From: an uncultured Gemmatimonadales bacterium
GTDB lineage: Bacteria > Gemmatimonadota > Gemmatimonadetes > Longimicrobiales > RSA9
Length of the DNA stretch: 64,000 nt
Direction: 5' to 3'
Assembly (NCBI GenBank): GCA_963798085.1
Contig: CAWCRS010000003.1
Location: forward strand, 672,001 to 736,000
Shown here: positions 12,262 through 46,724 of the stretch, piece by piece
Position numbering within the stretch: the stretch's first letter is position 1
Layout of the letters: each line of letters starts with the position of its first letter
Position numbers and translations under genes: made by a program
Notes under the pieces: model-generated
The model's input: only the letters and a program-made list of their open reading frames with translations
Told to the model about the DNA's origin: nothing
Databases searched by the model: none

Positions 12262-12729
12262 TCAGTGCAGGCTCTTGAGCCACATCTGATGATTGAGCCA
12301 AAGCTTGACAGTGCCTGGCCTGCCGGTGCGAAATGCCTCCTCGCCGGCACGATGGATACGCGCGATAAGAGGAGGTTCGTGAGCGTCGAGGAACGACACA
12401 ATGCGTGGCATGGTCTGGATGAGGTTCTGAGCGAGAGCTTCATGCGTATGTTTGCCGACAAGCATAAGCAGGGCAACCCCTGCTCGCATCACCATGTCTC
12501 GCTCGATCGTGTTGTAGCGGATCTCTTTGTTGTGGGTAAGAGCGATCCAACCGCGACGACCAATTTCCCGCAGCCACTCTGTGTCTGGCGTGTCAGGCGC
12601 GAAATGTGTGTCGTGGCGTTCCACACGGAATCCTGCCCGCACCAGCGCGTCTGGGATGATGCGACCGAGATCTCGATCTGCAAAGAATATGCGATCAGGC
12701 TGCGGCTTCGAAGAGGATCGCCTCTTCAA
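12262..12729 (-). CDS. VapC45-like PIN-domain toxin
   Basis: FFADRDLG..PDTEWL..GWIALTHNKEIRY pattern; overlaps upstream antitoxin. Confidence 0.8.
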   Translation of the reverse strand: MKRRSSSKPQPDRIFFADRDLGRIIPDALVRAGFRVERHDTHFAPDTPDTEWLREIGRRGWIALTHNKEIRYNTIERDMVMRAGVALLMLVGKHTHEALAQNLIQTMPRIVSFLDAHEPPLIARIHRAGEEAFRTGRPGTVKLWLNHQMWLKSLH

Positions 12730-13417
12730 GCTCCGCTTCCCCGAGATTGTAATCGCGCATTACTTCTTCCGGAGACTCACCGGAATCCAGGCGCTGCGCC
12801 ACTGCCCGGGTCGAGACACCGACGCGTCTGATGATGGGGCGCCCGAATGAAATGAAGGGTGCGATGAGAATGACTTTCTGGCCAGCATTCTGCGGGAGCT
12901 TCTCCAATGGGAAGAACTCCGAAGGAAGTTTGCTGGAGTCGTACTCAATGCGCTCAAGGTACTGTTCAAGTATTGTTCGCATCGCCAGTTGTTGGGAGCG
13001 TGAGAGCTCAAGGATGTGCGTATAGCGATCCAGGAAGAGCTGCTTGGCGGAGGTCTTGAGCTGTGGATCAAGCAAGAGCCTGGTGATGCCAAGATCCTGC
13101 TCAGCGATCGCCAATGCATCGCGAATCGTGGAAAGGGTTACTTCGTGCACCAGGCGGAGCGCGCGAATGATGTGAGCCTCTACGAGATTGAAGAAGGATA
13201 GCCTCGCATCCGACGTGGCCGGCCTGTCCAATACTGGAACGAAGAAGCCGAGGTCAGCTTTTCTGCGGTAGGCCTGACCCACCGTCCAAGCTCGGAGCGT
13301 GCTTGCCGGAATCCCGGTAGCTCGAGCTGCCTCCGGGTAGGAGTACCGCGGTTCGTCGCGCGGATCGGCACCGCCGTAAAGGCTCAGGTCTACGGCACTT
13401 GTGGCGGTCTGGATGAT
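12695..13417 (-). CDS. VapB45-like HTH + DUF433 antitoxin
   Basis: Frame extends upstream of ORF call: LYGGADPRDEPRYSYPEAARATGIPASTLRAW (HTH); LSFFNLVEAH; SFGRP..GESPEEVMRDY (DUF433). Confidence 0.8.
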   Translation of the reverse strand: MIQTATSAVDLSLYGGADPRDEPRYSYPEAARATGIPASTLRAWTVGQAYRRKADLGFFVPVLDRPATSDARLSFFNLVEAHIIRALRLVHEVTLSTIRDALAIAEQDLGITRLLLDPQLKTSAKQLFLDRYTHILELSRSQQLAMRTILEQYLERIEYDSSKLPSEFFPLEKLPQNAGQKVILIAPFISFGRPIIRRVGVSTRAVAQRLDSGESPEEVMRDYNLGEAELEEAILFEAAA

Positions 13418-15072: not shown

Positions 15073-16200
15073 ATGCGTTCCGTGCACGGGCGACACGCCG
15101 CGTGTCGACCGGGAGCCGACCGGGTGCGGATCGCGCTGATCTCGTCCTGGCCGGGCGACCCGGCGGCGGGCGGCGGTACGGCGATGGCCGTGCGGGGGCT
15201 CGCGCGCGGCCTGGCGCAGCTCGGCCACGACGTCGAGCCGTTTCCGGGCGCCGACGAAGGTCGCAAGAGCCTTATCTCCCGCGTCGTCTTCAACTGGCGG
15301 ATCCGCGAGCGCGACTTCCGCGCGTTCGAACTCGTGATCGGCGTGGACCTGGACGGCTTCGCGCTCCGCATCGACCGACCGTACATCGTGATGCTGAAGG
15401 GCGTCGCCGCCGACGAGGCTGCCCACGAGCGAGGACCGGCCGTCCTGGAGCGGCGGCTCGCGGCCGCGTTCGAACTGGCGAACGTCCGACGCGCGGATCG
15501 CGTCGTGGTTCCGAGCCGGTATGCGGCGGGCATCGCCACCGACCGATACCGCATCGCGCCAGAGCGCGTCGCCGTGGTGCCCGAGCCGGTGATGCGGTTG
15601 GCGGCCCCGGCCGCGGCGTCACGCGCGCGGCCCACGATCCTCGCCGTCGGCCACCAGTATCGTCGCAAGCGGACCGCCGACCTGCTGCGTGCGATCCCGC
15701 TCCTGCCGCCGCATCTCGCCGACGCGCGCGTGCGCGTCGTCGGCGACGGTCCCGAGCTGCCGCGTCTTCGCAGGCTCGCGAGCAGGCTCGGCATCGCCGA
15801 TCGCGTCGACTTTCTCGGGCGCATCGATGACCAGGCGCTCGCGCGCGAGTATGCCGGTGCCGACTGCTTCTGCCACCCGAGCGTTCAGGAGGCGTTCGGC
15901 ATCGCCGTCGTCGAGGCCATGGCGGCGGGACTGCCGGTGGTCGCCGGGCGCGCGGCGGCACTCCCCGAGATCGTGCGGGATGGCGTCACCGGCCTGCTCG
16001 TCGCGCCGCGCGATCCTTCAGCGATCGCCGCCGCGCTCGCGCAGCTGCTGGACGACGGCGAGCTGCGCGCATCCCTGGGCGCGGCGGGACGTCTTCGCGC
16101 CGCGCTCTGGAGTCCGGTCGCGCACGCGCGCCAGGTGCTGGATGTGAGCGGCGTGCGGGTGGAACCGTTGCCGGCGGCGGGTGCGCCTCAGCCGGGCTGA
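15073..16200 (+). CDS. glycosyltransferase family 4
   Basis: EAFGIAVVEAMAAGLPVV (EX7E), VGDGPE; AAGGAG RBS. Confidence 0.92.
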   Translation: MRSVHGRHAACRPGADRVRIALISSWPGDPAAGGGTAMAVRGLARGLAQLGHDVEPFPGADEGRKSLISRVVFNWRIRERDFRAFELVIGVDLDGFALRIDRPYIVMLKGVAADEAAHERGPAVLERRLAAAFELANVRRADRVVVPSRYAAGIATDRYRIAPERVAVVPEPVMRLAAPAAASRARPTILAVGHQYRRKRTADLLRAIPLLPPHLADARVRVVGDGPELPRLRRLASRLGIADRVDFLGRIDDQALAREYAGADCFCHPSVQEAFGIAVVEAMAAGLPVVAGRAAALPEIVRDGVTGLLVAPRDPSAIAAALAQLLDDGELRASLGAAGRLRAALWSPVAHARQVLDVSGVRVEPLPAAGAPQPG

Positions 16201-16432
16201 AACGGCGGATGGGCGCTCGAACCGGCGCTCCGCCGCGAGTCGTCACGAGCAGCGTGTCGCCGCGACCGTGTGTCAGGGCGATGCTGCCGATGGATCGAAG
16301 GCTGAGACTACTGTCCACCGATCCAAAGCCGCCAGCCGGCGTCAAGGTGAGGCGATGCAGACCAACCGGGTCGCTTCCACGACAACCCGCCGCAATCATC
16401 GCCAACGCCAGTCCGCAAAAAGTGAGTTTCAT
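16200..16432 (-). pseudogene. truncated lipoprotein cassette gene
   Basis: MKLTFCGLALAMIAAGC lipobox, ATG 22 bp after an attC R'; runs into the 3' end of the convergent GT4 gene after about 78 codons. Confidence 0.5.
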
Positions 16433-16453
16433 TTCGCGCGATTGAGGTCAGTG

Positions 16454-16598
16454 GCAGATCGTTTCTTCTGTTCACGACGCGCCGGAGGCGACAGCAAGGG
16501 CGGCGCAAGCATGTCCGCGCCCTTCGTCGCGTGGCCCGATCAACAGCCTGCCGGGCCGGCGGCCGACAGACCGCCGAGCGTGAAATGGCGTGCTAAAT
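16454..16598 (-). mobile_element. degenerate attC site
   Basis: Shares TTCACGACGCGCCG..GGCGCA.GC.TGTCC with the site at 23705; TTCACG/CGTGAA arms; cores mutated (GCAGATC, GCTAAAT on + strand). Confidence 0.6.
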
Positions 16599-16605
16599 GC
16601 CGTGG

Positions 16606-17005
16606 TGGTTCGGCAGAGGCTGATCCTATTGCACATCGTTCGGGGGTGATGGTTTACAGTCGCCATGGTAACGTGAGCCTTCCCTTTGACGGGAGGCTCC
16701 ATGCTCTGGAGGACGCAGACCATCATGGACGAACGTGCTCGCTTTGCGATCGAGGCCTCGCACTCGACGCACCCGTTTGCGGAGACCTGCCGCGGTTTCG
16801 GGATCAGCCGGCCCACCGGCTACAAGTGGCTCCGAGCGCTATCGTGACGGGCAATTCGCCGGGCTCGCCGAATCGCTCGCACCGGCCCACAATGCCCTCA
16901 CGCGACGCCACAGCCCGTCGTGCAGCGTATGCTTGCGCTGCGCCAAATGGAGTGCGGTACCCGCAAGATCCAGCGCTTGCAGGGTGTTCGACACCGTGGC
17001 CTGCC
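16606..17005 (+). mobile_element. IS481-like element, 5' remnant
   Basis: Near-copy of 19151-19555 including left end and MDERARFAIEA.. N-terminus, decayed and truncated. Confidence 0.85.
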
Positions 17006-17056
17006 ACTGCTCAGGACAACGGCTGGGATCGGCCACTGTCTCGGGTCTACAGTGAT

Positions 17057-18139
17057 TCATGTCTTGGCCTTTTGCTGTCGCCGGACGGGCGGCCTGGAAG
17101 TGACCGCTCGGAATTCGTTGGCGTCGGCAAGTTTCTCGACCAAGTGCCTTATCCAGGCCTCCTTGTACCCGTACGCATCCGCGAAGGCGTCGTACACGCA
17201 GAATTGCTCGATTGTTTTTTCCTTCTGCTTGCTGTTCGTTGGCGGCCTGACGTTGTAATGCCTCCACGCTCGTGTGTGTGTATCCTGCGTGAAGACATAT
17301 GGCAACTCGGCGGCAACGCGCTTCACGACCTCGCTCGGTTTGAGTAGGTCGGCAAATGCGACGGGAACGCGGCGCTCCTTGATGAGCGCGGCCACCTTCG
17401 CGAGCTGGGCCATTTCCTCAGGCTTCGTGGGATCGTACGGGACGAACTCGATCGACAAGTCAGAGGCACTCTCACGATTGGCGAGCTTCGGTACCAAGAA
17501 CACACTCAACGTGTACTTGGGGCTTGCAAGAACCTCTGGCGGCAGGCCGGCTCGGTAGGTCCGGACAAACTCGAGGAGATCGCGGGCGGCGGATTTCTCG
17601 AGGCTTCTTACCGCCGCGGCTTGGGATTCCGGACGTAGGGCTGAGAATTGAAGGGATACTGCTAGGGAAGCCGTGAGCGCGTGGTTCGGGGTAAACTCGT
17701 GGACCAAAAGATCCTCGAAGTTCATCAGCAGGGCTTGGCATTCGCCGTAGAGCGCCGGATCAAGCTCCGGGTGATCGCGGTGCTCAATGCGGTTCCTGAT
17801 CTTGATGAAGAACTCGAAGTTGCTCCGCTCCGGCGGGTTCTTGTCGCCCCAGTACTGCCGGAGACACTCCCCGAGTTCCCAATGCTTTGGTTCGCCGTCG
17901 ACCCGTGTGTAACGGAGACCCTTACCGGAGCCACCTTGCACGTACCAAGGCTTGATCCCGCGTGCGTAGAAGATCGCGTGGAAAAGCGCCGTGGTGGCCA
18001 TCACCATCAGGACTGCATACGTGCGAGTACGAAAGCCGCCGCCTGGCCGGTTGTAGTTCTCAACAGCGCACAGAGCACTCGCGCGCGCCTTCTGGAGATG
18101 TTGACGTGCAAGCCGGGGAATGCGCTTTCTTGACATCAC
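17057..18139 (-). CDS. DUF3644 domain protein with HEPN-type RxxxxH motif
   Basis: KARASALCAVENYNRP..FRTRTY N-terminus; IRNRIEH; CQALLMNFE. Confidence 0.75.
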   Translation of the reverse strand: MMSRKRIPRLARQHLQKARASALCAVENYNRPGGGFRTRTYAVLMVMATTALFHAIFYARGIKPWYVQGGSGKGLRYTRVDGEPKHWELGECLRQYWGDKNPPERSNFEFFIKIRNRIEHRDHPELDPALYGECQALLMNFEDLLVHEFTPNHALTASLAVSLQFSALRPESQAAAVRSLEKSAARDLLEFVRTYRAGLPPEVLASPKYTLSVFLVPKLANRESASDLSIEFVPYDPTKPEEMAQLAKVAALIKERRVPVAFADLLKPSEVVKRVAAELPYVFTQDTHTRAWRHYNVRPPTNSKQKEKTIEQFCVYDAFADAYGYKEAWIRHLVEKLADANEFRAVTSRPPVRRQQKAKT

Positions 18140-18193
18140 GCTTCTATCCTACACCGGATCTGTTTGCTGACTGTAACTGTTGCCCGCTTGCGC

Positions 18194-18300
18194 CTTTTAT
18201 GGATTGTGTGCTGTCAAGCCCTACGGTTCCGAGCGACACAACCCCCCCTCGGACGGGACAGCCCACATGCTGGCTGAGGCCGTGGCCTCGCCGGTCCTTG
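18194..18300 (-). mobile_element. orphan right end of an IS110-family element
   Basis: About 50 bp similar to 26109-26155 (GTGTCGCT..GGGCTTGACAGCA.ACA.TCCATA.AAG on minus strand). Confidence 0.7.
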
Positions 18301-18304
18301 CGGC

Positions 18305-18943
18305 TTACGGCTCAGAATGCCGACCCGTGGCCAAGTCGATTGATTCAACGATCAGAAGAGCGCGATTGACGATTCGGCGATATCCTTCGTCGAGCATTGC
18401 CAGTACGCTCGCGTGGCTCTCTGCGCTGATCGCAGAATCGAAGGTCTTCTCAAACAGCAGCATCAATAGATCGACCTCCGAGTTGTAGAAGTCAAGCTGA
18501 TCCCTAAGCCAATGCAGCATCTGTTGCAGCTCCAAAGAGAGGATGACGAACCCGACTGTTTGGCTTCCCAAGAATGGAGCCGTGTAGCGAACCAAGTGGA
18601 GAGGCCTGCTCGGACGGCCTTGGGCGTGGCTCAGGGCGTTGAGATCTGGCGCTGACATGCCTGCGAGTCGGCGCATCCCGAGAATGCCGTCAACATCGTC
18701 CTCCGGACCCGCCGTCACCCTAGCGATTCCTGCTCGAATTCGCTCAAGCAGTCGATCGTCCAAGAGGGCGCGGCGGTAAGCGACGGTCAGAGCCAGAATG
18801 GCAAAAGTATCGCGAAGCTGTCCAAGCTCTGCGAACAACGCCGTCTTGAGCTTCTTGCGTTGACGGGGACGATCAATGACCTCGGCAAGGGGGCCAGAGA
18901 ACAGGCCCAATGCCCAGCCTAAGATCAAAGTCAGGACGGGCAT
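18305..18943 (-). CDS. hypothetical cassette protein with N-terminal TM helix
   Basis: 212 aa ORF downstream of attC R' at 19013; hydrophobic N-terminus then helical domain. Confidence 0.65.
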   Translation of the reverse strand: MPVLTLILGWALGLFSGPLAEVIDRPRQRKKLKTALFAELGQLRDTFAILALTVAYRRALLDDRLLERIRAGIARVTAGPEDDVDGILGMRRLAGMSAPDLNALSHAQGRPSRPLHLVRYTAPFLGSQTVGFVILSLELQQMLHWLRDQLDFYNSEVDLLMLLFEKTFDSAISAESHASVLAMLDEGYRRIVNRALLIVESIDLATGRHSEP

Positions 18944-19006
18944 TGGGTCAGCATAGTCCCAGGTGTATGTCAGCCATCTTCACGAACAAGTCCCTCGCAC
19001 GATTCC

Positions 19007-19142
19007 AGATAACGTCTCAGAGTTTCATGTCGGGCCGGAGCCGCTTGCGGCACCAGCCCGTTCACGCCATTCAAGAGCTACCCGCCTCGGCCGTTGCGCG
19101 GCGGGGTCGCGCCAGCGATTCCGCATGAACCTGTTGTTAGGC
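19007..19142 (-). mobile_element. attC site
   Basis: Minus: GCCTAAC-AACAG-GTTCATG ... CATGAAAC-TCTGAGAC-GTTATCT. Confidence 0.8.
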
Positions 19143-19150
19143 GCCGTCCG

Positions 19151-20488
19151 GGGTTCGGTCGAGGCTGATCCTTTACACATCGTTCGGGGGCGATGGTTTA
19201 CAGTCGCCTTGGTAACGTGAGCCTTCCTTTTTTGACGGGAGGCTCCATGCCGTGAAGGACGCAAACCATCATGGACGAACGTGCTCGCTTTGCGATCGAG
19301 GCCTCGCATTCCACGCACCCGTTTGCGGAGACCTGCCGCCGGTTCGGGATCAGCCGGCCCAGCGGCTACAAATGGCTCCAACGCTATCGTGACGAGCAAT
19401 TCGCCGGGCTCGCCGATCGCTCGCACCGGCCGACGAGCTGCCCTCACGCCACGCCACAGCCCGTCGTGCAGCGCATCCTTGCGCTGCGGGACCAGATGGA
19501 GTGCGGTGCCCGCAAGATCCAGCGCTTGCTGCGCGACAAGTTCGACACCGTGCCTTGCATCGATACCATTCACGACATCCTCTGCCGGCACCAGCGCGTC
19601 ACGCCGCGCAGGCCTTCCCGCCGACGTACCCATCCCGGGCCACCATTCACGTCCATGGCCCATGCCAACAATGTCTGGACCGCCGACTTCAAGGGTGAAT
19701 TCAAGACGGGCGATGGCCGCTCCTGCTTCCCGCTCACGATCCAGGACGGCTACTCCCGCTTCCTGCTCGAGTGTCGTGCCTTCACCCGCCTCGATCTCAA
19801 AGCACGGCACGGCGATTCGATCACCTCTTCCACACCTGTGGACTGCCGAATCGCATCCGTACCGACAATGGCCATCCCTTCGCATCCCGTGCCCTTGCAC
19901 GCCTCTCCCAGCTCTCCGTTGACTGGATCAAGCTGGGCATTCTCCCCGAGACCATCGAACCCGGCAAACCCTATCAGAACGGCCGGCATGAACGCATGCA
20001 TCGCACGCTTGGCGAGCGCACCGCCACCCCACCCGCTCCAACGCTTCGTGCGCAGCAGCGCCGCTTCAACGAATTCCGCACCTTCCACAATACCGTGCGT
20101 CCACATGAAAGCCTGGGCCAGGAGACCCCCGCTTCCTTCTATACGCCGTCCGCGCGTCGGCTCGCACGCACCCCTTCACCGCTGGTCTATCCCCGGCACT
20201 TCGAACAACGCCTGGTCAGTCAGCTCGGCTCCATCCGCTGGAAGAAGCGCTTCATCCATGTGAGCCGCCTGCTCGCGCACGAATACGTCGCGCTCGAACC
20301 GATCGCCGTCTCCGTCTGGTCCGTCTATTTCGGTCCCATTCACCTGGGTTGGCTTGACGAAACAACGATTTCCGTATCATGGACGCACGACGACTGCAGC
20401 AACGACAACGCTGACCATCAACCCCCGAACGTTCTGTAAACGATCACCCCCACTGCTCAGTTGCAAAGGATCGGCCACGCCTACTGCA
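19151..20488 (+). mobile_element. IS481-family insertion sequence, transposase about 19247-20440 (frameshifted)
   Basis: HTH (CRRFGISRPSGYKWL), WTADFKG, IRTDNG, QNGRHERMH DDE motifs; repeated terminal boxes GGCTGATCCTTTACA / TGCAAAGGATCGGCC, GATGGTTTACA / TGTAAACGATC. Confidence 0.9.
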
Positions 20489-20489
20489 A

Positions 20490-21477
20490 CTACGACTTCC
20501 GGCGGCCGGCAATCACAGCGGTGAGGGCTAGGATGACGACGCCCACGAGAATCGCGAGAAATGCGATTGTGTTGCCAGTCAGTTTGCCTTGAGCGAAAGA
20601 CACGCCGCCATACATTATCGGGCCTGCAGCAATGATGATACCGATCATCATCAGCACTTTGCGCTCAAACAACAGCTCGACCTTCTCAAGAACGCTCTGA
20701 CGGCCTGCCTCGATTTTCTCAGAAAGCACCTTGGTCTCGTGCTCGATCGTCTTCGCAAGGCTCTGTGTGCGTTCTTGGAACTCGTCCTTCATTATTCGCA
20801 CGTCAGATACAACCTCGAATTTACCATGCAAGTTGGTCAGTTCCGTACCAATGTGATCGAACGGGTAGCCCGCCTCGCGTAGTTGCTTCTTTGGATCGAG
20901 CTGCCCGAAGCTCGAGGCAACCAGCTTACGCTTCGGAATGTCCGCAGGTATGCGGCGGCCGGAGCGGACAACGCCCTCCGAATCTTGGTATCGGTGGCTC
21001 GGGTGGGAACCATAAGGGAAATCAGGTCGCTCTTCGCCCTCAAGGACGAGGATGGTCAATTTGAAGATCGGTTCCCCATACTGAATGATGAGATCCTTGA
21101 CAGAACCGTTTCGAAGGCCCCAATTCAGCGAACCCCGGAACCCGGCATCGATCTTCGTCGCAACTTGCGAGATTCCCTCTCGCATTATCGTGGTTGTGGG
21201 CGTAATGAAGCCCATCAACATGCGGTTGGGCAGCACCTTGTGAACTGCTTCGGCCGTGAAGTCAATAGCCTCTAGGCTAGAAATGACCACGCTTTCGCCG
21301 GGCAGACCTTGAGGAACATACCCTCCTCGAGTTCGGCCTCCTCCCCCGTTGAGTGAAAGAGGACCTCTTTCCCGAGTCGAAGTTCGATGCCATTGGGGTT
21401 GAGAAGCTCCTCGCTCGCGTTCTGGAGAACGGAACCAAGAAGTCTCTTTACATTCGGTCAGCGAGCAGCTTGGCCAT
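20490..21477 (-). CDS. Dcd/dUTPase-fold domain + coiled coil + two C-terminal TM helices (two apparent frameshifts in first 60 codons)
   Basis: Reconstructed MAKLLADR.VKRLLGSVLQNASEELLNPNGIELRLG..PGESVVISSLE..KIDAGFRG..YQDSEG; two hydrophobic helices at C-terminus. Confidence 0.75.
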
Positions 21478-21530
21478 AACACGCCTCGTCGGTCCTTAGA
21501 GTCTATAATGTAATGCGCGAAGACCATGGC

Positions 21531-21676
21531 GGCCAACGTCCCGCGGTTTACGACGCCGCGAGAGCCCGGCGACAGCCGGGCGAAGCGCTGTCCGACGCCT
21601 CCCCGTGCTACCCCTTTCCCGTGCCTGCGGCGGCCAGCGGCTGCAGGCCGCGCAGCGTAAACCCAGCGTGTTATGC
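21531..21676 (-). mobile_element. attC site
   Basis: Minus: GCATAAC-ACGCT-GGGTTTACG ... CGTAAACCGC-GGGAC-GTTGGCC. Confidence 0.85.
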
Positions 21677-21752
21677 GCCGTTCGATCCGCCATGTTGCGG
21701 GCGGCCCGGCTCTAGCAGCACAAGTCCACCGGCACAACGGAGCTCTGGGGCC

Positions 21753-22892
21753 TTAGAGTATTTTCGCCCGGTATGGAAACCTCACGCTGAACGTTGTCAT
21801 ATACATTCCGCGGTACCCCGCATCAGGCTCCTCATGTTGTTCCACGGTTATCTCTGTTCCCAGGTGTTCCTTCGCAACCAGTTGGCTCAGATACAGACCA
21901 TATCCTGCGCCTTCCTCGACGGCCTGAAGCGCAGCCTCACCACGGAAGAATGGTCTGAAGACCTTACGGATTTCGTCCTTCAGAATCTTCGGCCCGAGCG
22001 AGGAGACCTCCAGTACGATCCCGTCACGTTCATCTTGGACGAAAATCTCAATTGTAGAGCCAACTGGGGCGTACTTCACGGCATTGTCGATAAGGGTGTG
22101 CGGGATTACGGACGACGCCTGCGGGTTTGCGACGACGTTGGCATAGCTCGATCCAGCTACAGTCACCCTGAGGTTCTTGGCGTCGAACCACGACTGATAG
22201 ATACGGACATACTTGATCACAGCGCCATGCAGGCGGAACGCAACGCACTCCGATGCGATGGTGAGCCATTCCGGGCGTAGCAGAAATTTCGCCACATTGA
22301 GCTTTTCTCCAAGGAACCGAGCTGCTTCATAGATCGCGCGTTCGGCCCGCGATGCACGGCCTAGTTTATCCTCGAACGTCCCGCCAGGGTGCAGTTCCTC
22401 GATGATCACATTGATGTTCTGACTGATCTGCGCATTGATCTGCTTGTAGTCATGTACGAACGCAAGGCCACGTTGTATGTCTTCCTTCAGGGACTTGAGA
22501 TAGTCAACCCGAAATTGGTCCACGTCGAGAATGTCTTCCCGTTCTTCGGTAAACCTAATCTCCCTTTCTTCTTTTCGGCGACTGAGAAGGGCGCGGTAGT
22601 AGTCAAGTGCCGCCTGGAATTCCTTGTTCGGAACAGGGACCACTTGACGCCGGCGACTTTTGCGTGCCGGTGTCGCGTAAAGCCAATCCTCAAGGACCAC
22701 GCCCGCGACCAGCAATTTGCTATCGACTCGTTGGTAGTTGAAGCCGTACTTGCAAAGCTGCGCGCCCTCCTTACTCTCGTGCTCACAAGGCCGATCCATG
22801 CAACGGAGGCATCGCGACGGCCACGGGCGGAGGCTGCCATCGCCGTAATGGCCATTGTAGAGGTGCGGGAATGGGAAGAAAAGGGTATCCAT
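21753..22892 (-). CDS. soluble sensor histidine kinase with Cys-rich N-terminus
   Basis: FVHDYKQIN H-box, LIDNAVKY N-box, GAGYGLY G2 box; CLRC..PC..LC N-terminus; no TM. Confidence 0.85.
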   Translation of the reverse strand: MDTLFFPFPHLYNGHYGDGSLRPWPSRCLRCMDRPCEHESKEGAQLCKYGFNYQRVDSKLLVAGVVLEDWLYATPARKSRRRQVVPVPNKEFQAALDYYRALLSRRKEEREIRFTEEREDILDVDQFRVDYLKSLKEDIQRGLAFVHDYKQINAQISQNINVIIEELHPGGTFEDKLGRASRAERAIYEAARFLGEKLNVAKFLLRPEWLTIASECVAFRLHGAVIKYVRIYQSWFDAKNLRVTVAGSSYANVVANPQASSVIPHTLIDNAVKYAPVGSTIEIFVQDERDGIVLEVSSLGPKILKDEIRKVFRPFFRGEAALQAVEEGAGYGLYLSQLVAKEHLGTEITVEQHEEPDAGYRGMYMTTFSVRFPYRAKIL

Positions 22893-23540
22893 CAGTGCAC
22901 CAATAGCTGCAGGACCGCTATGCCAGCCTGCGCGACTTGCAGTATGAGGCCAACTGTCTGCCGTTCCTCTCGGGCGTCACGAAGATAGCTGGCCAGTGAG
23001 TCTGTGTCGCGAAGTAGAATGGCTCTTTTGGCCACCTCCTGGAGCTGCCTTGGCTCGATGTCGGCGGAATGGGATAGCGAACCGATCCGGTCTAGGTAGA
23101 AGGCAAGCGAAAACCGTCGTTGTAGCAAGTCATCAATGGTTCGTTTGAATTCAACGTAATCCGCGCGCTTATCAAGTGTCGCGTCCGCAAGATCGAAGAA
23201 TTCCTTGTATTTCAGGGGCCAATCAGCGTTTGAATACGCGACGATGACTTGGGCCGGCGCGACCTTCTTCAAATGCCGAAGGACCCCGAGGCCTGCGTCT
23301 TTGGAGATGGCTGTACCCACGCCGTGGATGTCAAGCAGGATAACATTCGAAGTAGCCAGCCTCGAGTTTCGGCAAGTCAGTGACGTCTTGCCATTGTTCG
23401 ATGGTATAGCCATCGCGTTGGAATAGCTGGAGATAGAAGAACTCCGCGTCGTCGAGGACGAGCAAGCGAGCTCGCTTCGCAATTTCCTCGCTCGAAACAT
23501 GAGGCCAAGGCTTGGGACGGCGCTTGAATGGCCAACGCAT
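22892..23540 (-). CDS. receiver-domain response regulator without recognisable DNA-binding output (frameshift near 23346)
   Basis: RLLVLDD..VILLDIHGVG..IVAYS..LDK; TGATG coupling to kinase. Confidence 0.8.
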
Positions 23541-23704
23541 GGTTCCCGAACTCGTTCAAGGGGGACGCCAACTAGCCCGGTCTTGGGATGTTTAGACTCT
23601 CCAAGCGCAGTGTCAAGGACGACAAGTCGAGGCGGCCGTCGTTACGGGTCTATGCACGCCGGTGTTTTCACGTCGAGACACGATGCCGGTTGGCATCGCA
23701 TTGC

Positions 23705-23845
23705 GCATAACGTTCATTGATTCACGACGCGCCGAGAGCCGAGCGAAGCCCGGCGCAGGCGTGTCCAACGCCTTTCCCAATCTACACCTATCCCAGCCCG
23801 GGTTGGCACAGCCGAAGGCTGCGCCGGGTGAATCTGGTGTTAGCG
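23705..23845 (-). mobile_element. attC site
   Basis: Minus: CGCTAAC-ACCA-GATTCAC ... GTGAATC-AATGAAC-GTTATGC. Confidence 0.85.
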
Positions 23846-23942
23846 GCCGTGCGTCCGTGCCTGAATACACGTGGTTCTGTGGCGAAGCGGGCATCACCAC
23901 GCACCCGCCTTGGCGGGCCGACCGGTTGTCTCCTCTCAGCAG

Positions 23943-24957
23943 CTAATTGCAGGGCCATACACCCCCGCGTAGCACAACGCCTGCTTCCCGAAGGTAGCTG
24001 TTGCGGCTCGTGGACCATCGCCGGTCAATGCCACTCCTGTCGAGCAATTCGCCGTGCAGGTTCGATACGAATCGGTCAAGCAGGATCGTCAGATACATTA
24101 GGAGGTGAGCAACCGCGCGTGGCGCGGTTGCGAGGGCGCCCGCCGAGACAGGAACGGCCGATTCGAATCTATCGATTACGTCGTTAATCTCTAGAACCCT
24201 GTCAGTGTCCAGCGTACCAGATTCGCCCAAGCCGCCCAGACCGCCTGACCGCATCATAGCCGAACCCCGGACGATAGTTTATGGCATTGCGTATGGCGCT
24301 CGGCCATTCGCGACCGAGGATGTCGCCTGACCGCTTGATTGCGCGAAATGCGCGTTCCTCACCGGCTGAGCCGGTTCCGCTTGGGTACTTCTGAAGCCAC
24401 TCAGTACAGATATCAAACCACGCCCTCCAGACGTTGTCGTGGAGCCTGCCGTGCGCCTTTCGCAAGGAGATCTCTCTCGCGGTAGCGCCGACGCTCGTCC
24501 CGCAGTTGACCCGGTAGGTACCTGACCCGGCCTTCCGCCCAGCGGCTCCGGCTGCCGCCAGGACTCGGCTAACGTCCGCGTCTACGAACCACGCAGTCCT
24601 ACCGATAAGACGCGTCGCGGCGAGCACCAAGAAGAAGGCCCAATAGTACCAAGTGATCACAAGCCACGCCGGACTCCAAGTACCACCGCTACTCTGCGCG
24701 CGCCAAAGGAACACTTGGTGCTCAGCTGCGTGGTCAAGCAGGTACTCCGCATTCCCGATGAGAGCCGAGCCGAACTCCATCGCTGGCACAACGAGCGTGT
24801 ACCCTTTGCTCGATGATGCGCTAACGGTAAAGTATCCCGCTTGCGTCCACGAGCCAAGCGTGTTGGGTCGCCCGAACGTGTGCGAAACGCCGATCGGGAT
24901 TGCATCCAGCGCGAGCGACCTTGCCTCTTGCCAGACGTTGCCCTTGGGGAAGCTCAA
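23943..24957 (-). CDS. hypothetical protein, HEPN-like (frameshift near 24225), partner of DGQHR protein
   Basis: WLVITWYYWAFF helix, GRLH, IRNAINY (RNxxxY); TTGA overlap with upstream gene. Confidence 0.6.
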
Positions 24958-25972
24958 AGCATTGCCTCGGAGATCGGAGTCCCTTTGCGGAGAGCGGCGT
25001 GAAACAGTGCAACTATTCCGCGCTTGGTGAGGGTGGCGCGTCCGGTGATTCCAGAACTGAGGTCAAGGCGTGCAAGTGGTCGGACTACCATTTGTATATC
25101 GGCCTGCTTGGCACTGCCGCGTTGATTTATCGCGGTCCGGACAACTTCATCGAGCACTTCAAACATGGCCTCAAAGAACGCCGCCTTTGTGAGATTGCGC
25201 TTATCGATGAGTTCGGCGTCGAAAGCATTGAGATAGTTCAAGATGAGTTTGAACCGCATGTCAGGGTCAACATCCAAAAGAACACCACTGTCAAGGATCT
25301 GCGACAACGCGCGATTGAACGTAACGCGCGAGATCTTTCCGCTGAGCGATCTCGCTGCACTCAGGCGGCCCGCAAGGGGGGATCGGGGATGCTTCTGGAG
25401 CTTGTCGAAGTACTCCCGGAGGATCTGTTCCTTCGCGCTTTCGATTTCTGCGACTTGCTTGATATCGAGAAGCAAGGCGGCCGGTACTCCACGCTGAGTC
25501 GTGTTAATATCGATGAAGAGTTTTGCCTCCTCAGTGCGCGAGAGACCGTCGTATATGGCTACTGGAACGCGATGACGAACCGAGCACTTTTGATAACCCC
25601 AGAGCCTGTGCTGACCATTGATTACGAGAAAGGCTCCCTGCACTCTTGCAAAGGATAAGGACTTGGTCCGGCGGGCGTACGAGAACTCGGCCACATTTGG
25701 GCGGATAGGACGATGTTGCTCGGAATCGATCCAGAACCCGCTGCCAGGTAGGCGGCGATGTCATTTGCGCGCGTCTCGTTCAACGCTCTCTGAAATCCAG
25801 TTGCGGGATCGTCATCACGACGGGAAACGAAGCAACTTGGAAAAAGATCATCCACGGGGATCGTGGCAAAATAAAAGCGGTGGCGATTCTGTGTCATGAG
25901 CAGCGCTGGATACGAGATCGGCCTTCGCACACGCCGGCTCGCTGCTTTGGCAGTAGGTTTCTTGGATGACAT
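24954..25972 (-). CDS. DGQHR/DndB-like (ParB-fold) protein (frameshift near 25695)
   Basis: GFQRALNETRANDIAAYL, IPSNIVL, INGQHRLWG, EEAKLFIDINTTQRGV. Confidence 0.88.
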
Positions 25973-26108
25973 GGCAACGTGCCTTATCCTTGGGAATTAC
26001 TGATGGTGACGCCCCGGTCTCAGGACGGCTGTCACAGCACCTGGCAATCGGAGCGCCGTAATCTGAGGCCACCTGGGCACTAATGCAAGCTACAAGGACC
26101 AATGGCCG

Positions 26109-27547
26109 CTTCTATGGACTGTCTGCTGTCAAGCCCCACGCTTCAAGCGACACGATTCCGTTCAGTGCTGTTCACACTGTTCCAGCGAACGGCTCGACGT
26201 CGGCGGCTTCGTGAGTTTGTGCGGCAGGCTGCGCCGTCACGCCCTTCTATCCGTGCCGGCCGCAAGGGAGCCGGTCACCCTCTACTGCATGCGCGCGATC
26301 CACTCGTGCGCCCTGGAAGCCGCTGTCGGGATGGGCTCCATTTAACGTACGGTTTCCTCATGGGAGAACCACCCGCCATAACGAGCTCCACCTCTCGACG
26401 TCGTCTGTCAAACAGCGGTGCTTGCTTCCGATCAGGCCGTACGCAGCTTCGCGCCTTCCGGTACCACGCCCGCATCCGCATAGCGCCAGAGCGCAATCAG
26501 CAGCTTGCGCGCCAGTGCCACAATGCCGATCCGCCGCATGCGTTTCCCGCCATGACCGAAGCGCGCTTCGTACCAGCGGCTCAGCTGACTTCGCGGCTGG
26601 AAGCGCAGCCAGCACCAGGCAATCTCGATCGCCATCGCCCGGACCTGCCGGTTCCCCGCCTTGGTGATCCCCAGCTCGTGGTCCATCTCGCCGCTCTTGT
26701 GCGGCGTACCCACCAGTCCCGCCAGCGCTCCCACCTGACGTCGATTGCGGAACTGTCGCCAACTGAAGAATTCCATGCTGAAGGTCCAGGCACTGTTCAA
26801 GCCGATCGCTTTCAATGATCCCAGGCGACGCACCATTGTGTACGCGGGCTCACTCGACGTGCGGAGCAGTCGCCGCCGCTCCGCTTCCACTCGCCGGATC
26901 TGCTGCTTCACCAGCAACACTCGCTCCCACTCCCGCTCCAGCCGTGCCCGCAGGGCCGCAGGGAGCTTCGTCCGGTTCCAGAGCCGCGCACGGCTCAAGC
27001 GTGCGAGAAAGTCCGTGACCAGCTCGAGCCGCAACCCCTGACTGGCCAGCAGTCCCTTTCGGTTCGTCAGCCGCGTCTGCTCGTGCTTCAGCGTTTCCAG
27101 CTCCCGGTGCAGCTGCCGCCGGTCTTCCTCTTCCACACTCGGAACCTGCACCACGCTCCAGGTGCGCACCTCTCCGCCACAGTACTCCACCAGCATGCGC
27201 AGCAGCTTCGTCAGATCCACACGGTCCGTCTTCACTCGCCGCCGCCCTGTCCGCACCTCGAAGCTCGTCGCATCCACCACCAGACTTCTCACTCCGTTCG
27301 CCTCCATAAACCGGTGCAGCCAGAATCCCTCACGTCCCGCTTCGTAGCAGCACACCACCTTCGCATCGCTCTTCAGACTGAAGCGCCGCTTCGCACGTGC
27401 CACTTCCTCCAGAAGCGCTTCTCTGTCCCGTGCCTCGATCACTCGCTCGCGTACCGGTTGCGCCGGCGCCGTCTTGAACCCCAGATTCCACTTCGACTGG
27501 CCGATCTCGATCGCCATGTAGCTGCTGGCCGGCTTGGAACCACGCAC
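26109..27547 (-). mobile_element. IS110-family element: recombinase 26432-27547 plus 3' non-coding end; left end apparently deleted
   Basis: AIEIG, CYEAG, KTDRVD RuvC-like residues; HKSG..GITKAGN Tnp domain; right end TTGACA..CCATAGAAG. Confidence 0.9.
26170..26430 (-). ncRNA. candidate bridge/seek RNA in IS110 3' non-coding end
   Basis: About 320 bp non-coding end with hairpins; contains ATAGAAG (26244-26250) identical to the element terminus (26109-26115); boundaries approximate. Confidence 0.55.
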
Positions 27548-27551
27548 CCGC

Positions 27552-28466
27552 TCATTCGCTCACTTGGAAGTAATCGGAGTCGAGCCGCTTGAGCTCGTAC
27601 GCTTGAACGCGGGCAACGCCAATGTCATGATCGATCATGAGCCCTGCCAGCGCCTGACCATCGACTAGTACAATCTTGCTGTCGATGTTGGCCGCGTACT
27701 GCGTGGCATCTGCCGTGAACGATGAACTGGTGATAAAAATCCCCTTTCGAGCGCGAACACCCTGCAGTGCGCCCGCGAACTTCTGGATTTCAGGTCGACC
27801 TACCGTCCCTTCCCAGCGCTTTGCCTGAACGTAAATAGTGTCCAGACCGAGGCGATCCTCCTTGATGATTCCGTCGATGCCGCCGTCGCCGCCACGGCCG
27901 ACCGCCCGACCCGCGTCAGCTCTTGACCCGCCATAACCCATGGCAACGAGAAGCTCGACGACGAGGTTCTCAAAGAACGACGGCGGACAGATTCGAACTC
28001 GCTCGAGGAGGTCGGTCACAAGCTTGGTTCGAATCTGCTCGTAACCGTATTCGATGTGTTCCTCCGGAGTGAGGTCGTCAATTGGTGGCTTCGGGCGCGT
28101 AGGCTTGGCCGGCCCATCGCCGCGTCCTGCGCGGTAGCCAACGTATTCCGGGAACTGCTCAAGGGTCTTCATGCTGATGCGGCCAGGCGTACTGGCGAGA
28201 ACCTCACGGCCTCGCGCAGTGATCCGATAAACCGCTCGACGAGGTGATTCGATCAGGCCAGCCGCTTTGAGATGCGATTTTGCCCACGCGACCTTGTTGA
28301 CGAAGATGGTCTGCTTGCCACTGGGCAGGAGTTGAGCGCGCTCATCTGATGTCAGGGCGAATTGCTGGGCCAGCGCCTCGAGTGTTTCATCGTTGGGATG
28401 TTCCCGACCGTCCGCCATGTGCTCCAGCAGCGGCCGCATCAGCGTTTGAAAGTCAGGAATCGGCAT
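27552..28466 (-). CDS. mrr: Mrr type IV restriction endonuclease
   Basis: MPIPDFQTLMRPLL Mrr_N; FFENLVVELL..GDGGIDG..YVQAKRW..ITSSSF. Confidence 0.95.
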   Translation of the reverse strand: MPIPDFQTLMRPLLEHMADGREHPNDETLEALAQQFALTSDERAQLLPSGKQTIFVNKVAWAKSHLKAAGLIESPRRAVYRITARGREVLASTPGRISMKTLEQFPEYVGYRAGRGDGPAKPTRPKPPIDDLTPEEHIEYGYEQIRTKLVTDLLERVRICPPSFFENLVVELLVAMGYGGSRADAGRAVGRGGDGGIDGIIKEDRLGLDTIYVQAKRWEGTVGRPEIQKFAGALQGVRARKGIFITSSSFTADATQYAANIDSKIVLVDGQALAGLMIDHDIGVARVQAYELKRLDSDYFQVSE

Positions 28467-28490
28467 TGTGATCAGGGGTTGAGCTTGTGC

Positions 28491-28608
28491 GCGTAACGAT
28501 ACAGCCTCGGGCGTGCGCGGGCCAGTTGCGCCTACACCAAAACTCTGAACGTCGTCAACCGGAGAACACACCGCCGATCGTGCCCGCCCTCGCCCAACAG
28601 CATTGAAC
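28491..28608 (-). mobile_element. degenerate attC-like (or attI-side) site at head of array
   Basis: GTTACGC core 25 bp upstream of mrr ATG; GGGCG..GCGGGC / GCCCGC..CGCCC arms; R'' degenerate. Confidence 0.4.
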
Positions 28609-28994
28609 CCTGTCTCACGTAGCTCGTCGCCAACATGCCACCGAACCGCCCATGCCTTCAACTTCTCAGTAACGCACACGCACAATGGATATTGACCGCC
28701 CTGGCCCGCCCAATTCCCTTCCCCGGCCCGTTCCGCCGTTGCCCGGCAGTAACCCTCCCATCACCCCCGGCCGGCTCGGCGGACAAGACGGCACGACCTG
28801 CCGCGGACCCGCACCGGCGCGCCCGCCGAAACGGCGAAGTCAATCCTCGGCACGACTCTGCCCACTGGAACGCGCTCGCCCGCTCACAATGGCTCGGACC
28901 GCGCTTCGTCGTCTGAAACCGTGACAGCCCGCATTTGCGAATACCGCACTGACCGCCTCCAAGCCGAGTCCGCCGCGCGCAATGAGCAGAACGC

Positions 28995-44083: not shown

Positions 44084-46724
44084 TCAGCGAGCGGGCAGCG
44101 TGAAGGAAAAGAATGTTGCCCCGGCCGGGGCCGGAATCGAGCCACAGGGCGCCGCCGTGAGCGCGCACGATCTGGCGGGCCCGTGCCAGGCCGGTGACCG
44201 GCTGATCTGCCTCGCCGGTGAGCGGGTCGAAGATGGCGGCCTGCTCGTCGAGCGGGATCGGCTGGCCGTTGTCGACCACGGAGAACTGCACGGCGCTGCG
44301 CACTTCATCGGCGTACACGGTGACGCGGCCTTCGCGACCAGCGAGGCGGGCGGCGTTAGCGAGCAGTGTTGCGAACACCGCGGTTATGCGCTCCCGATCG
44401 ACGAGGACAGCGGGTGCGTCGTCGTCCACTTCCGTATCCACGTGCGGGTGCGGGCCCGGCCTCGCGGTGAAAGCCTGCAGCGCGTCCTGAACCAGCTGCG
44501 CGGGTGAGAGCGGCTTCAATGTGAGTGCGGTGCGTCCTTCCTCCAGTGCCGTGAAGTCCAGCAGCTCATCGGCCAGGCGGCGCACGCGGGCGAGGTCAAT
44601 GCTGGCGGCCGCGAGGCGGGCGCGGTCTTCACGGCTGCATTCGGGGGCGAGCGACTGGTCCAGCCGGTCCAGGTTGGAGGCCAGGCTGGCGAGCGGCGCG
44701 CGCAGCTCGCGGGAAGCGCGCGTCACGAACTCGGTCCTGAGCCGATCCATGTCCTCGCGCTGGCGCGCGCGGCGGGTTTCTTCCTCGAGCCGTTCGCGTT
44801 CGATGGTGGCGGCGATCTGGCGCGCGAAGACATCGAGCAGGTGCAGCTGCTCGGGATCGCGCAGGCGAGCCCCACTGGCCGGTTTCACGGCGAGCACGCC
44901 CACGGCGCCGCGCGCCGCCACCAGGGGCACGTGCAGGGCGGCGGCGCTGGGCAGGGTGTCGGTGCCGGCGCCGGCCGGCTTGCGGTGGTCGAAGGCCCAC
45001 CGGGCGACGGCTAACTCATGGTTATCGAGTGACGGCCGGCCTGCCGCGGCGGCCACGTCCAGCCGGCCCTGCGCGTCCGGCAGCAGCACGGCTGCGTCGC
45101 TGCCGAACACGGCGGCAATGTGGCGCACGCCGGTCTGCAGGGCGCGATCCAGCTCGGGCGTCTGGCCCAGGTCGCGGCTCATCTCGTAGAGTGCGGCTGT
45201 CCGCTGTTCGCGGTGCCGCGCGCTCTGCGAGCGCAGCTTGAGTCGCGCCGTGAGGCTGGAGATGACGAGCGCCACGGCCAGCATCACGAGGAAGGTGATC
45301 ACGTACTGCGTGTCGGAAACGGCGAAGGTGAGGTGCGGTGGCACGAAGAAGAAGTCGAACGCGGCGACGCTCAGGATGGAGGCCAGAATGGATGGCCGGC
45401 GGCCCAGGCGTGCCGCCACCATGGTGATGGCGAGCAGGAATACCATCACGATGTTAACGAGTTCGAACCAGGGCCGCATCGCGCTGCCGATGAGGGTGCA
45501 GGCGACGACCGCGAGCATGGCCCACAGGTAACCGCTGCGCGCGTCCTCGACGGGTGCAGCCACGCGTCGCGGCACGGCCTCCTCGCCCGGCTCGCCGCTG
45601 ATCACGTACACATCGACGTCGCCGCTGGCGCGCACCACGTTGTCGAGCAGCGAGCCGAGGAGTCGGTCGCGGATGCGCGTGTGCGCGGGCTTGCCCACGA
45701 CCAGCTTGGTGACGTTGTGCGTGCGCGCGTAACTCAACAGCTCGGTGGCCGTGTCGGTGCCGCTGACACTCACCGTGTGGCCGCCCAGCTGTTCGGCCAG
45801 GCGCAGTGTTTCCCAGACGCGGGAGCGGTCCGCCTCGGACCAGCTGGTGTACGCCGGTGTTTCCACGAATGCGGCGATCCATTCGGCGCCGAGCCGTTCC
45901 GCCATGCGCTTGGTGGCGCGCACCAGCCGTTGTGAGCTGGGCGCCGCGCCCACGGCGACGAGCACCCGTTCGCGCACCGGCCAGGTTTCGGCGACACCTG
46001 TGGCGCGGCGATACACCTGCATCTGGGCGTCGACGCGTTCCGCGAGGTGTCGCAGCGCGAGCTGGCGGAGTGCGATGAGGTTTCCCTTGCGGAAGAAGGA
46101 CTGCGCCGCTCTCGTCGCCTGCTCCGGCACATAGACCTTGCCCTCGCGCAGGCGCTGCAGCAGTTCCCCGGGTGGCAGATCCACGAGTTCGATCTCGTCC
46201 GCCTGCTCGAGCACGGCGTCAGGAACGGTTTCGCGCACGCGCACGTGTGTGATGCGGGCGACGACATCGTTCAGGCTCTCGAGGTGCTGCACGTTCATCG
46301 CCGCGTACACGTCGATGCCGGCATCGAGCAGTTCCTCGACATCCTGCCAGCGTTTGACGTGGCGCGAGCCGGGTGCGTTCGTGTGCGCCAGCTCATCGAC
46401 AAGGATGAGTGCGGGGTGGCGTGCGAGTGCGCCGTCGAGGTCGAATTCCGTGAGCGTGACGCCGCCGTGCGCAATGCTGCGGCGAGGCAGTACTTCGAGG
46501 CCGTCGAGCAGCGCTTCGGTCTCGGCGCGGCCGTGCGTTTCGATGACGCCGACCACGACATCGGTGGCGGCGCGCTGCTGCAGATGCGCGGCTTCGAGCA
46601 TGGCGTAGGTCTTGCCCACGCCTGCCGCCGCCCCCAGGAAGACCTTGAGGCGGCCGCGCTTTCGTTCGGCTTCGACCTTCACCTGCGCGAGCAGGGCGTC
46701 TGGATCGGGGCGTGCGTTCTCCAC
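44084..46724 (-). CDS. kdpD: full-length KdpD sensor with degenerate kinase core (frameshift near 44105)
   Basis: GAAAGVGKTYAML, VDELAHTN, Usp domain, 4 TM DUF4118, GAF; H-box reads ASRELRAPL. Confidence 0.92.

Follow-up and report, generated by a model that had tools for sequence, protein, structure and literature searches.

Introduction

Groups of attC sites with spacings below 4 kb and without an integrase in the vicinity were defined, with the program IntegronFinder, as clusters of attC sites lacking integron integrases (CALINs) (Cury et al., 2016; PMC4889954). As set out in the main text of a recent survey, the cassettes of sedentary integrons and of CALINs encode compact defense systems (Darracq et al., 2024; bioRxiv 10.1101/2024.07.02.601686), and a review already lists integrons for the phylum Gemmatimonadota (PMC8618304). 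Here, we describe such an array in a stretch of 64,000 nucleotides, hereafter the window, from an uncultured Gemmatimonadales bacterium (source genome G000, contig C3, positions 672001–736000; C1, C2, and C12 below are contigs of the same genome). The segment at ∼16.45–28.78 kb of the window very probably represents a cassette array of the integron type that lies on the minus strand, has decayed, and has no integrase of its own, that is, a CALIN that has kept an attI-like leader.

Several published observations on recombinases near attC sites bear on this locus. The IntegronFinder paper reports 50 recombinases that lie near attC sites but lack the IntI-specific region, 21 of them in genomes without IntI on the same replicon; of those 21, four were placed between IntI and Xer and lay beside fewer than three sites, and recombinases of this kind were judged not to be IntI (PMC4889954). 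It also describes integrons with an "inverted integrase," for example in Treponema, in which the integrase is transcribed toward the cassettes. The insertion that marks IntI is called "not fully conserved" in an integron-like subgroup in one account (Smyshlyaev et al., PMC8138268), and gain of the I2 helix is presented in another as the step to single-strand recombination (Escudero et al., PMC7790495). Among insertion sequences (IS), some elements of the IS1111 type are described as targeting one end of attC and as carrying a long noncoding region downstream of the transposase (PMC11187229).

Results

attC Sites in the Window and the Genome

An earlier note on this DNA, made from the sequence alone, had described imperfect palindromes with AAC...GTT cores between the genes, with degenerate copies near 16454 and 28491, and had called for a search for further copies in the genome. 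A BLAST comparison of four window sites with the whole genome gave 55 merged intervals, and all of those beyond the window's own four lie in arrays near contig ends (C2, 380–444 kb; C12, 1.7–7.3 kb; C3, 1095–1100 kb; C1, 476–482 kb). From 31 sites, all outside the window, an alignment (A1) was made and a covariance model (R1) was built from it. R1 matches four sites in the window at E ≤ 1e-10, all on the plus strand, and the next best match reaches 16.3 bits. Three of the four are the palindromes already described (137–147 bp), at 19006–19142 (87.5 bits, E = 2.1e-25), 21530–21676 (40.6 bits, E = 1.2e-10), and 23704–23845 (65.5 bits, E = 1.7e-18). The fourth, terminal site at 16455–16598 (111.2 bits, E = 6.9e-33) is the degenerate copy near 16454; both of its cores are mutated, the AAC core lacking two bases in the alignment and GTT having become GCT. 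The second degenerate site was not recovered: R1 reports nothing at 28491, even at E ≤ 10, nor at 26100 or 18140–18305, and the Mrr cassette described below has its 5′ leader in the DNA at 28491. The four sites are 2.0–2.4 kb apart, so that by this lineage-specific model the window holds at least two attC sites within 4 kb.

Across the genome, 65 matches were obtained at E ≤ 0.01, comprising 58 in the four arrays on contig ends (the further copies that had been sought), the four in the window, one partial overlap, and two weak single matches (22.8 and 23.5 bits). At E ≤ 1e-5, the family numbers 62 sites in the genome. Both cores are in place in 55 of these 62 and are intact in three of the four window sites. 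The sites are unidirectional and lie ∼1 kb apart in arrays of dozens, with invariant AAC and GTT cores. A weak R1 match on the minus strand of the window at 46029–46157 (16.3 bits, E = 0.005) lacks proper cores and is probably due to chance.

Common to the 31 sites of A1 are AAC and GTT cores that do not vary, two paired inner boxes, and a center rich in GC. RNAalifold, run with RNA and with DNA parameters, recovered part of the hairpin only; in folds of single sequences as DNA, a center of three branches was closed by an R stem and an L stem. A consensus structure of 30 pairs was set by hand after the partial RNAalifold result and was then tested. With this structure 94.0% of the alignment cells are paired, compared with 27.9%–44.7% when the partner is slid (six controls), and 7 of the 30 pairs have changed on both sides. 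Shuffles reached the observed value at most once in 500 on four of five measures and 12 times in 500 on the fifth. Pairing across the 31 sites is 98.4% in the R helix and 91.6% in the L helix. Within the window, compensation is seen in the L boxes of two sites: compared with the consensus, that of 19006–19142 has a compensatory change and that of 21530–21676 a compensatory pair change. Inverse AAC/GTT cores and pairing inner L boxes are the anatomy of attC; judged by their sequence and predicted folds, the window repeats are real integron-type attC sites.

Cassette Boundaries

In integron recombination the crossover lies inside the core, and as a result the two ends of one site may differ while the facing ends of neighboring sites match. 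Complementarity of the bases beside the core was counted for 55 sites with both cores and 49 readable neighboring pairs, of the 62 sites. Over four bases, complementarity was perfect in 33 of 49 neighboring pairs, in 8 of 55 cases within one site, and in 363 of 2925 for all other combinations; over six bases, the corresponding counts were 29/49, 4/55, and 169/2925. Because neighbors match and a site's own ends do not, repeats of the repetitive extragenic palindrome (REP) or miniature inverted-repeat transposable element (MITE) type are effectively ruled out. The chimeric sites expected of cassettes are thus present genome-wide. In the window, one of two complete cassettes is perfect in this respect, and a third matches at 8 of 9 bases up to an IS when read by eye (here and below, a manual reading of the sequence).

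The perfect cassette is that of the kinase, named RR/HK in the earlier note, where its ends had been given as complementary at nine of nine bases. Complementarity holds for the core and for six of six bases beside it; it does not extend over the full nine, where seven of nine agree. For the DGQHR cassette, the end sequence formerly quoted, GGCCGCTAAC, is absent; the one place that it matches exactly, 23839–23848, is where the same cassette begins, read on the reverse strand. Of the far end of this cassette, a stub of nine bases at 26097–26105 is left, from before the AAC core, and it is here that the match of 8/9 to the bases expected from the other end was read.

GC content is 0.54–0.64 across 17–29 kb of the window, compared with 0.65–0.73 on both flanks. 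The genes between the sites are co-oriented on the minus strand, as had been noted before, with the exception of an IS481 transposase. Spacers in the large array of the genome have a median length of 1044 bp and a GC content of 0.62, against 0.673 for the genome, and ORFs (open reading frames) that nearly fill a spacer run in the expected direction in 11 cases versus 3 (manual tally).

The Leader at the Head of the Array

A conserved noncoding segment at 28534–28777 (minus strand) ends exactly at the junction with the first cassette. Read from 28777 to 28534, it is 81.6% identical over 250 bp to C1:474964–475212, the head of the genome's large array. In both copies the similarity stops at the junction and the start of the cassette. 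In the C1 array, the first cassette starts with bases that, by eye, match the outer end of its attC at 11 of 12 positions, which indicates that the C1 leader junction has been used for insertion. At the window leader junction, one T of the GTT core is missing. No terminator was found in the leader, and a tblastn search of C1 at 466–476.5 kb, beside the C1 copy, revealed no recombinase or remnant of one.

The large array that begins with the same leader runs from C1:474964 to the contig end and over C2:363336–445978, with 5 sites of the window family on C1 and 44 on C2, and has no adjacent recombinase. From the orientations, and because the C3 end cuts through a site, we infer that C1 joins C2 and that C12 joins the end of C3.

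Canonical and Short Recombinases

No tyrosine recombinase was found in the window, in agreement with the earlier note: Pfam detected none among 18 ORFs, and tblastn with nine recombinases gave a best E of 0.006. No integron integrase therefore lies within 4 kb of the array, and none, nor a remnant, was seen across the 64 kb. The search for intI in the genome that the note had proposed returned one canonical IntI above the cut-off, at C1:447485–448429 (TIGR02249, 409.9 bits; cut-off, 265), so that the window does not hold a complete integron. This IntI is followed by seven copies of a different attC-like repeat, and no R1 match occurs within 27 kb. In the surrounding segment (C1:447332–462000, L011), which has the appearance of a separate integron, IntI is accompanied by seven copies of a 50-nt right end and by several exact duplications, each 300 bp or longer.

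A second recombinase of 382 residues (P0001) is encoded at C12:7885–9030, in the locus C12:7531–9030 (L013). At 354 bp past its stop codon, non-attC DNA meets a GTT core, and an array of attC sites of the window family follows. P0001 scores 219.7 bits on TIGR02249 (cut-off, 265) in two stretches that skip profile positions 180–234; it thus falls below the IntI cut-off and lacks the IntI-specific region of ∼35 residues. It is also below the cut-offs for XerA, XerC, and XerD. Its best relative of solved structure is IntI4 (2a3v, 2.8e-40). When P0001 and seven homologs were aligned with the C1 IntI, two insertions of the latter, of 31 and 10 residues, were absent from all of them, and in 80 of 80 further homologs the motif distance is 60–71 residues, so that all are of the short form. 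The open frame of P0001 extends upstream to 998 residues in total (990 in the homolog on G010:C30), and the putative extension of the protein is proline-rich.

In a tree of 36 sequences (LG+G4, with Shimodaira–Hasegawa-like approximate likelihood ratio support only), the canonical IntI proteins form one group (support 100) and the short recombinases lie outside it. Together, IntI and the short recombinases are split (support 99) from the Xer-like proteins, for which the source genome's own proteins were the only references.

Short recombinases lie upstream of, and co-oriented with, window-family arrays on G000:C12, G010:C30, G010:C35 (with 38 R1 matches on that contig), and G013:C2, in three genera. 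At these four array heads, the junction of non-attC DNA with GTT is 111–1554 bp past the recombinase stop, and no Y2 transposase is nearby. G010, which is 98% complete, carries 56 window-family sites and no IntI above the cut-off; its best score, 127.3 bits, belongs to a short recombinase. Downstream arrays at homolog loci were counted only where inspected by repeat finding, and at six more distant homologs examined in this way no downstream array was found. A further candidate array head, on G010:C22, was dropped, as both recombinase copies there are followed by an IS91-type Y2 transposase; this locus (G010:C22:158616–163695, L016) is a tandem duplicate of a short tyrosine recombinase with the Y2 transposase, beside a single attC. 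Such IS91-type recombinase/Y2 elements were not found in G000. In a metagenome-assembled genome labeled Bacillota (L033, 10001–16475), six attC-like sites that belong to another family, ∼125–150 bp long and 800–950 bp apart, lie downstream of a short recombinase, and the ends of these sites obey the cassette rule by eye.

R1 has matches in 6 of 30 relatives (including the unpublished G015), all of the same family. Of 301 genomes sampled from the phylum (including the unpublished G020 and G202), 125 have a canonical IntI above the cut-off, and integrons as such are therefore ordinary in Gemmatimonadota.

Insertion Sequences and Decay

An element of the IS110/IS1111 type occupies 26106–27551 on the minus strand, with a transposase at 26432–27547 (NF033542, 161.1 bits, cut-off 140; Transposase_20), ∼325 bp of noncoding DNA downstream of the transposase gene, and ∼35 bp upstream. 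Its left end directly follows the plus-strand stub at 26097–26105, of which only the bases before the AAC core remain and which belonged to the attC that closed the Mrr cassette. The right end abuts the Mrr stop codon, and the body of the attC of Mrr is thus gone. A second copy (C2:393011–394341, 96.8% identical) likewise follows an attC left-core stub. At 18185–18240 (plus strand), a third left-core stub is followed by a remnant of ∼50 bp of the left end, in which 18194–18229 is 86% identical to 26109–26144; the remnant also matches the C2 copy by blastn. The presence of this remnant after an attC stub indicates that orf212 and the DUF3644 gene were once separate cassettes. The left ends of two copies and one remnant therefore abut attC left-core stubs. 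The element shows what marks the IS1111-attC group, namely an IS110-family DEDD transposase, a noncoding region of some length downstream of it, and insertion at one end of attC.

A second type of element, of the IS481 family, lies at 19163–20449 on the plus strand, antisense to the cassettes. It has 28-bp terminal inverted repeats and a frame-broken transposase, in which Pfam detects HTH_32, LZ_Tnp_IS481, and rve_3 in two overlapping ORFs. A partial copy comprising the left end is found at 16619–17000 (plus strand; 93%–97% identical to 19173–19529, and 89% over 410 bp by blastn). Both copies are 20 bp from an attC site.

In all, decay shows in mobile elements (three insertions or remnants of the IS110/IS1111 type and two copies of IS481), in the mutation of the terminal attC, in damage at the leader junction, and in the broken frames of four genes. 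Intact sites now flank only the PDC-M43 cassette and the unit of Dcd and IS481, and excision is conceivable in principle for these two alone.

Cassette Cargo

The array held at least six cassettes, and all of their genes are on the minus strand. The first encodes an intact Mrr-type type IV restriction endonuclease (27552–28466; Mrr_N, 8.2e-32; Mrr_cat, 4.2e-36), which matches the PADLOC profile mREase_IV at 6.1e-86 and covers profile positions 1–315 of 317.

The second is a two-gene cassette (23943–25972). A DGQHR (DndB/DpdB-like) protein at 24954–25972 has one frameshift and is matched by TIGR03187 in two pieces (61.3 and 51.5 bits). Its partner, a rare protein of ∼340 residues at 23943–24957 (orf251 and orf104), also has one frameshift, and its two pieces align as one gene to homologs of 339 residues. 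Eight homologs of the partner were found; single-protein scans of metagenome contigs and genome contigs gave no relative of it. A genome search across the phylum yielded an intact DGQHR–partner pair in G022, with overlapping stop and start, in a 2-kb islet of low GC. At that locus (L029, 7058–9600, on G022:C3), the operon of DGQHR and the 339-residue partner is followed by two small genes, which we take from their sequence to be of the DUF4160/DUF2442 type, and no attC of the window family is nearby.

The third cassette, that of the kinase, carries an intact PDC-M43-like pair in which a gene for a protein of 202 residues (22892–23500) and one for a histidine-kinase-type ATPase (21753–22892) are adjacent, with a one-base overlap at 22892. 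The kinase matches HATPase_c (1.8e-13), and the pair matches the PADLOC profiles PDC-M43B (2.2e-13) and PDC-M43A (2.1e-13), in each case over part of the protein.

The fourth encodes a protein with a Dcd-like domain and a C-terminal membrane part (20490–21527), with two frameshifts near the 5′ end in a three-frame reading. It is below the cut-offs for dCTP deaminase (TIGR02274, 30 bits versus 92.8; PF22769, 18.5 versus 27), and these subthreshold matches cover only the C-terminal half of the fold. The N-terminal piece of 61 residues in the other frame has no Pfam match. Homologs number 602; nearly all of the 120 listed have 326–355 residues, most with PF22769, and the source name of one is likewise an uncharacterized membrane protein.

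The fifth gene, orf212 (18305–18943), is intact and has no match in Pfam, PADLOC, or NCBIfam. Its N terminus looks hydrophobic by eye, and its nearest Atlas clusters are hypothetical proteins of 210–213 residues (score 0.97). The last cassette encodes an intact DUF3644 protein (17057–18139; PF12358, 8.5e-44) that matches PDC-S19 of PADLOC (PDLC04950) at 3.8e-117.

Defense-like cargo had been proposed for these cassettes, and the PADLOC check agrees, as the Mrr protein (mREase_IV), the DUF3644 protein (PDC-S19), and the kinase pair (PDC-M43A/B) are all matched. Membership in these three systems holds at the level of profiles, with partner genes adjacent. PDC systems are themselves predictions from defense-island context. 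To judge by these matches, most cassettes look like antiphage genes; the remaining ones may be new defense systems, and four genes are frame-broken here. Broken genes were searched as separate pieces rather than as joined sequences. None of the four frame-overlap zones in the cargo genes contains a homopolymer run of four or more bases, and the breaks may be real decay or assembly error. When 13 window proteins were compared with the genome by tblastn, only IS transposases, weak histidine-kinase paralogs, and the C1 copy of the leader were found; apart from the weak, generic kinase matches, the cargo has no paralog elsewhere in the genome.

Outside the array, a PIN_10 protein (4.9e-16) overlaps a DUF433 protein (8.8e-10) at 12262–13282 (minus strand), in a separate low-GC patch (0.60–0.61). 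The two look like a toxin-antitoxin pair.

Discussion

That the array is of the integron type, as the earlier note had it, is upheld by a family of 62 sites with conserved R and L boxes, by compensatory changes, and by the cassette-boundary signature. Features that the note had not described are the attI-like leader, the entry of IS110/IS1111-type elements into attC cores, a sixth cassette boundary near 18.19 kb, and the link of the attC family, elsewhere, to an atypical integrase. The cassettes, in order Mrr, DGQHR with its partner, the PDC-M43 pair, the Dcd-like membrane protein, orf212, and DUF3644/PDC-S19, would have entered singly, each through a site-specific exchange in which a folded attC recombined with the leader junction. 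Anatomy suggests a crossover in the G|TT core, and each cassette would thereby carry one half of two neighboring sites. The recombinase would have acted in trans and could now act only in trans. Later, elements of the IS110/IS1111 type would have entered two attC cores, the remainder of both sites being lost, and the array may have become partly immobilized, with IS481 copies beside two other attC sites and with core mutations in the last attC and at the leader junction. We infer the order of these events, the action in trans, and the identity of the acting recombinase from the arrangement as it stands today.

A number of results weigh against this reading. The part assigned to the leader follows from its position only, and the term attI-like is used in that sense; it does not resemble the attI regions next to short recombinases (scores within those of shuffles), contains no sigma-70-like promoter, and was not found in five relatives. 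In the attC sites, a single base bulges within the L box and two more do so beside the R box; the bulges lie on opposite halves of a strand and do not map cleanly onto the classical extrahelical pattern. An Rfam scan of 15–30 kb gave no matches; to our knowledge, Rfam holds no attC family. The ends of the Dcd cassette, formerly said to match at 8 of 10 bases, agree at 4 of 6 (2 of 4), no better than unrelated pairs (mean, 2.37 of 4) and hence at chance level. Just 24 of 42 spacers in the large array have their longest ORF on the strand expected from the window genes, and simple insertions alone cannot yield the present gene order of the window. Finally, the flank genes have no orthologs in relatives, so that an empty site at the locus is not demonstrable: the dynamin-like gene has no match across 20 relatives (the unpublished G020 among them), and the glycosyltransferase gene has paralog-level matches alone (33%–49%) in the same 20.

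Ordinary intergenic palindromes of the REP or MITE kind in a defense island, with no cassettes and no site-specific recombination, would fit a low-GC region with IS elements. Copies of such repeats carry both of their own ends, whereas here own ends match in 8 of 55 cases and facing ends of neighbors in 33 of 49. The single orientation, the spacing of ∼1 kb in arrays of dozens, the invariant cores, the tyrosine recombinases beside which arrays start, and the scarcity of scattered single copies (just two, both weak) all run counter to this explanation, which we regard as extremely improbable. In a different history, the segment between the IS110-type and IS481 elements (∼19.16–27.55 kb) arrived in one piece from another array, through recombination that was either IS-mediated or homologous, and the window holds a mosaic. 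This would account for the Mrr stop that abuts an IS without an attC body and for the mismatched Dcd ends. In its favor, too, each of the two IS types has a second copy inside or close to another array, and the outer six core-adjacent bases of 19006–19142 by eye equal the first six of the Mrr cassette after the leader. A six-base match, however, occurs in 169 of 2925 unrelated pairs (∼6%), the motif recurs in the large array, and the tblastn search with the 13 window proteins found no donor copy of the cassettes elsewhere in the genome. A mosaic origin is therefore considered rather unlikely.

Which enzyme served the cassette array is a separate question. The insertion-less, IntI-like recombinase is in our view a more likely partner than canonical IntI, because it heads an array of the same attC family as the window. 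We tentatively propose, with somewhat less than even confidence, that this attC family is captured and shuffled by a sister group of IntI that lacks the IntI-specific insertion (the I2 region), and that the leader of the two integrase-less arrays is an attI acting wholly in trans. The array could instead be a plain CALIN served in trans by the IntI of C1, the short recombinases being unrelated passengers such as integrases of elements that landed at array ends. A full-length IntI with the signature insertion does exist in the genome, far above its cut-off, and canonical IntI is common in the phylum. Two short recombinase copies (G010:C22) are parts of IS91-type elements, six distant homologs have no array downstream, and the verdict given in the IntegronFinder paper is that recombinases near attC without the IntI-specific region are not integron integrases (Cury et al., 2016; PMC4889954). 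Yet the C1 IntI adjoins another attC family, more than 27 kb away from sites of the window family; G010 has dozens of window-family sites and no IntI above the cut-off; and the short recombinases at the four array heads point the same way as their arrays, close to the junction and with no Y2 transposase near. Service by the C1 IntI is therefore considered rather unlikely.

As a CALIN with defense genes, the window array is one more example of a published idea, from a little-studied soil phylum, and it offers candidate systems in the DGQHR protein with its 340-residue partner, the Dcd-like membrane family, orf212, PDC-M43, and PDC-S19. The attC family reaches further, since it forms arrays of dozens directly behind a recombinase without the defining IntI region, and published surveys filter out insertion-less recombinases by design. 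Our literature search found no report of large arrays headed by such recombinases, which is not proof that none exists. If the short recombinases are working integrases, integron censuses undercount, integron-type cassette capture is independent of the IntI-specific (I2) domain held to be needed to read the folded single-stranded attC, and the origin of single-strand recombination becomes directly testable with a natural protein.

The IS110-type element resembles the IS1111-attC group, reportedly the work of Tetu and Holmes in 2008 and of Post and Hall in 2009, in its DEDD transposase of the IS110 family and its fixed orientation at one attC end. It differs in being a new element in a new phylum, with the rest of attC lost beside both insertions and the other junction unreadable. 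Those arrays of the window's attC family that have a recombinase are like the "inverted integrase" group in that it is upstream of and co-oriented with the cassettes; unlike the short recombinase, the enzymes of that group carry the IntI-specific region.

In its cargo, the array compares with the integron cassettes of Darracq et al. (2024; 10.1101/2024.07.02.601686), among which Mrr-type nuclease domains are also described. That study is centered on Vibrio and on complete genomes, and the window array is in Gemmatimonadota; the terms PDC, dCTP, histidine kinase, and DUF3644 each have no occurrence in its main text, and the supplements may list such cassettes.

The window array is of a known kind, a CALIN with defense-like cargo, and its integrase link outside the window is the unusual part. 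It shares with CALINs and sedentary chromosomal integrons, as these are characterized in the IntegronFinder paper (PMC4889954), the RYYYAAC and GTTRRRY cores, the paired R and L boxes, the chimeric boundary sites, the homogeneity of sites within a lineage, and a large array elsewhere in the genome. Unlike CALINs, it has an attI-like leader that is kept though the integrase is gone, its attC family has long sites (137–148 bp) with a three-branched center and end complementarity to about nine bases, and the recombinase to which this family is linked has no IntI-specific region.

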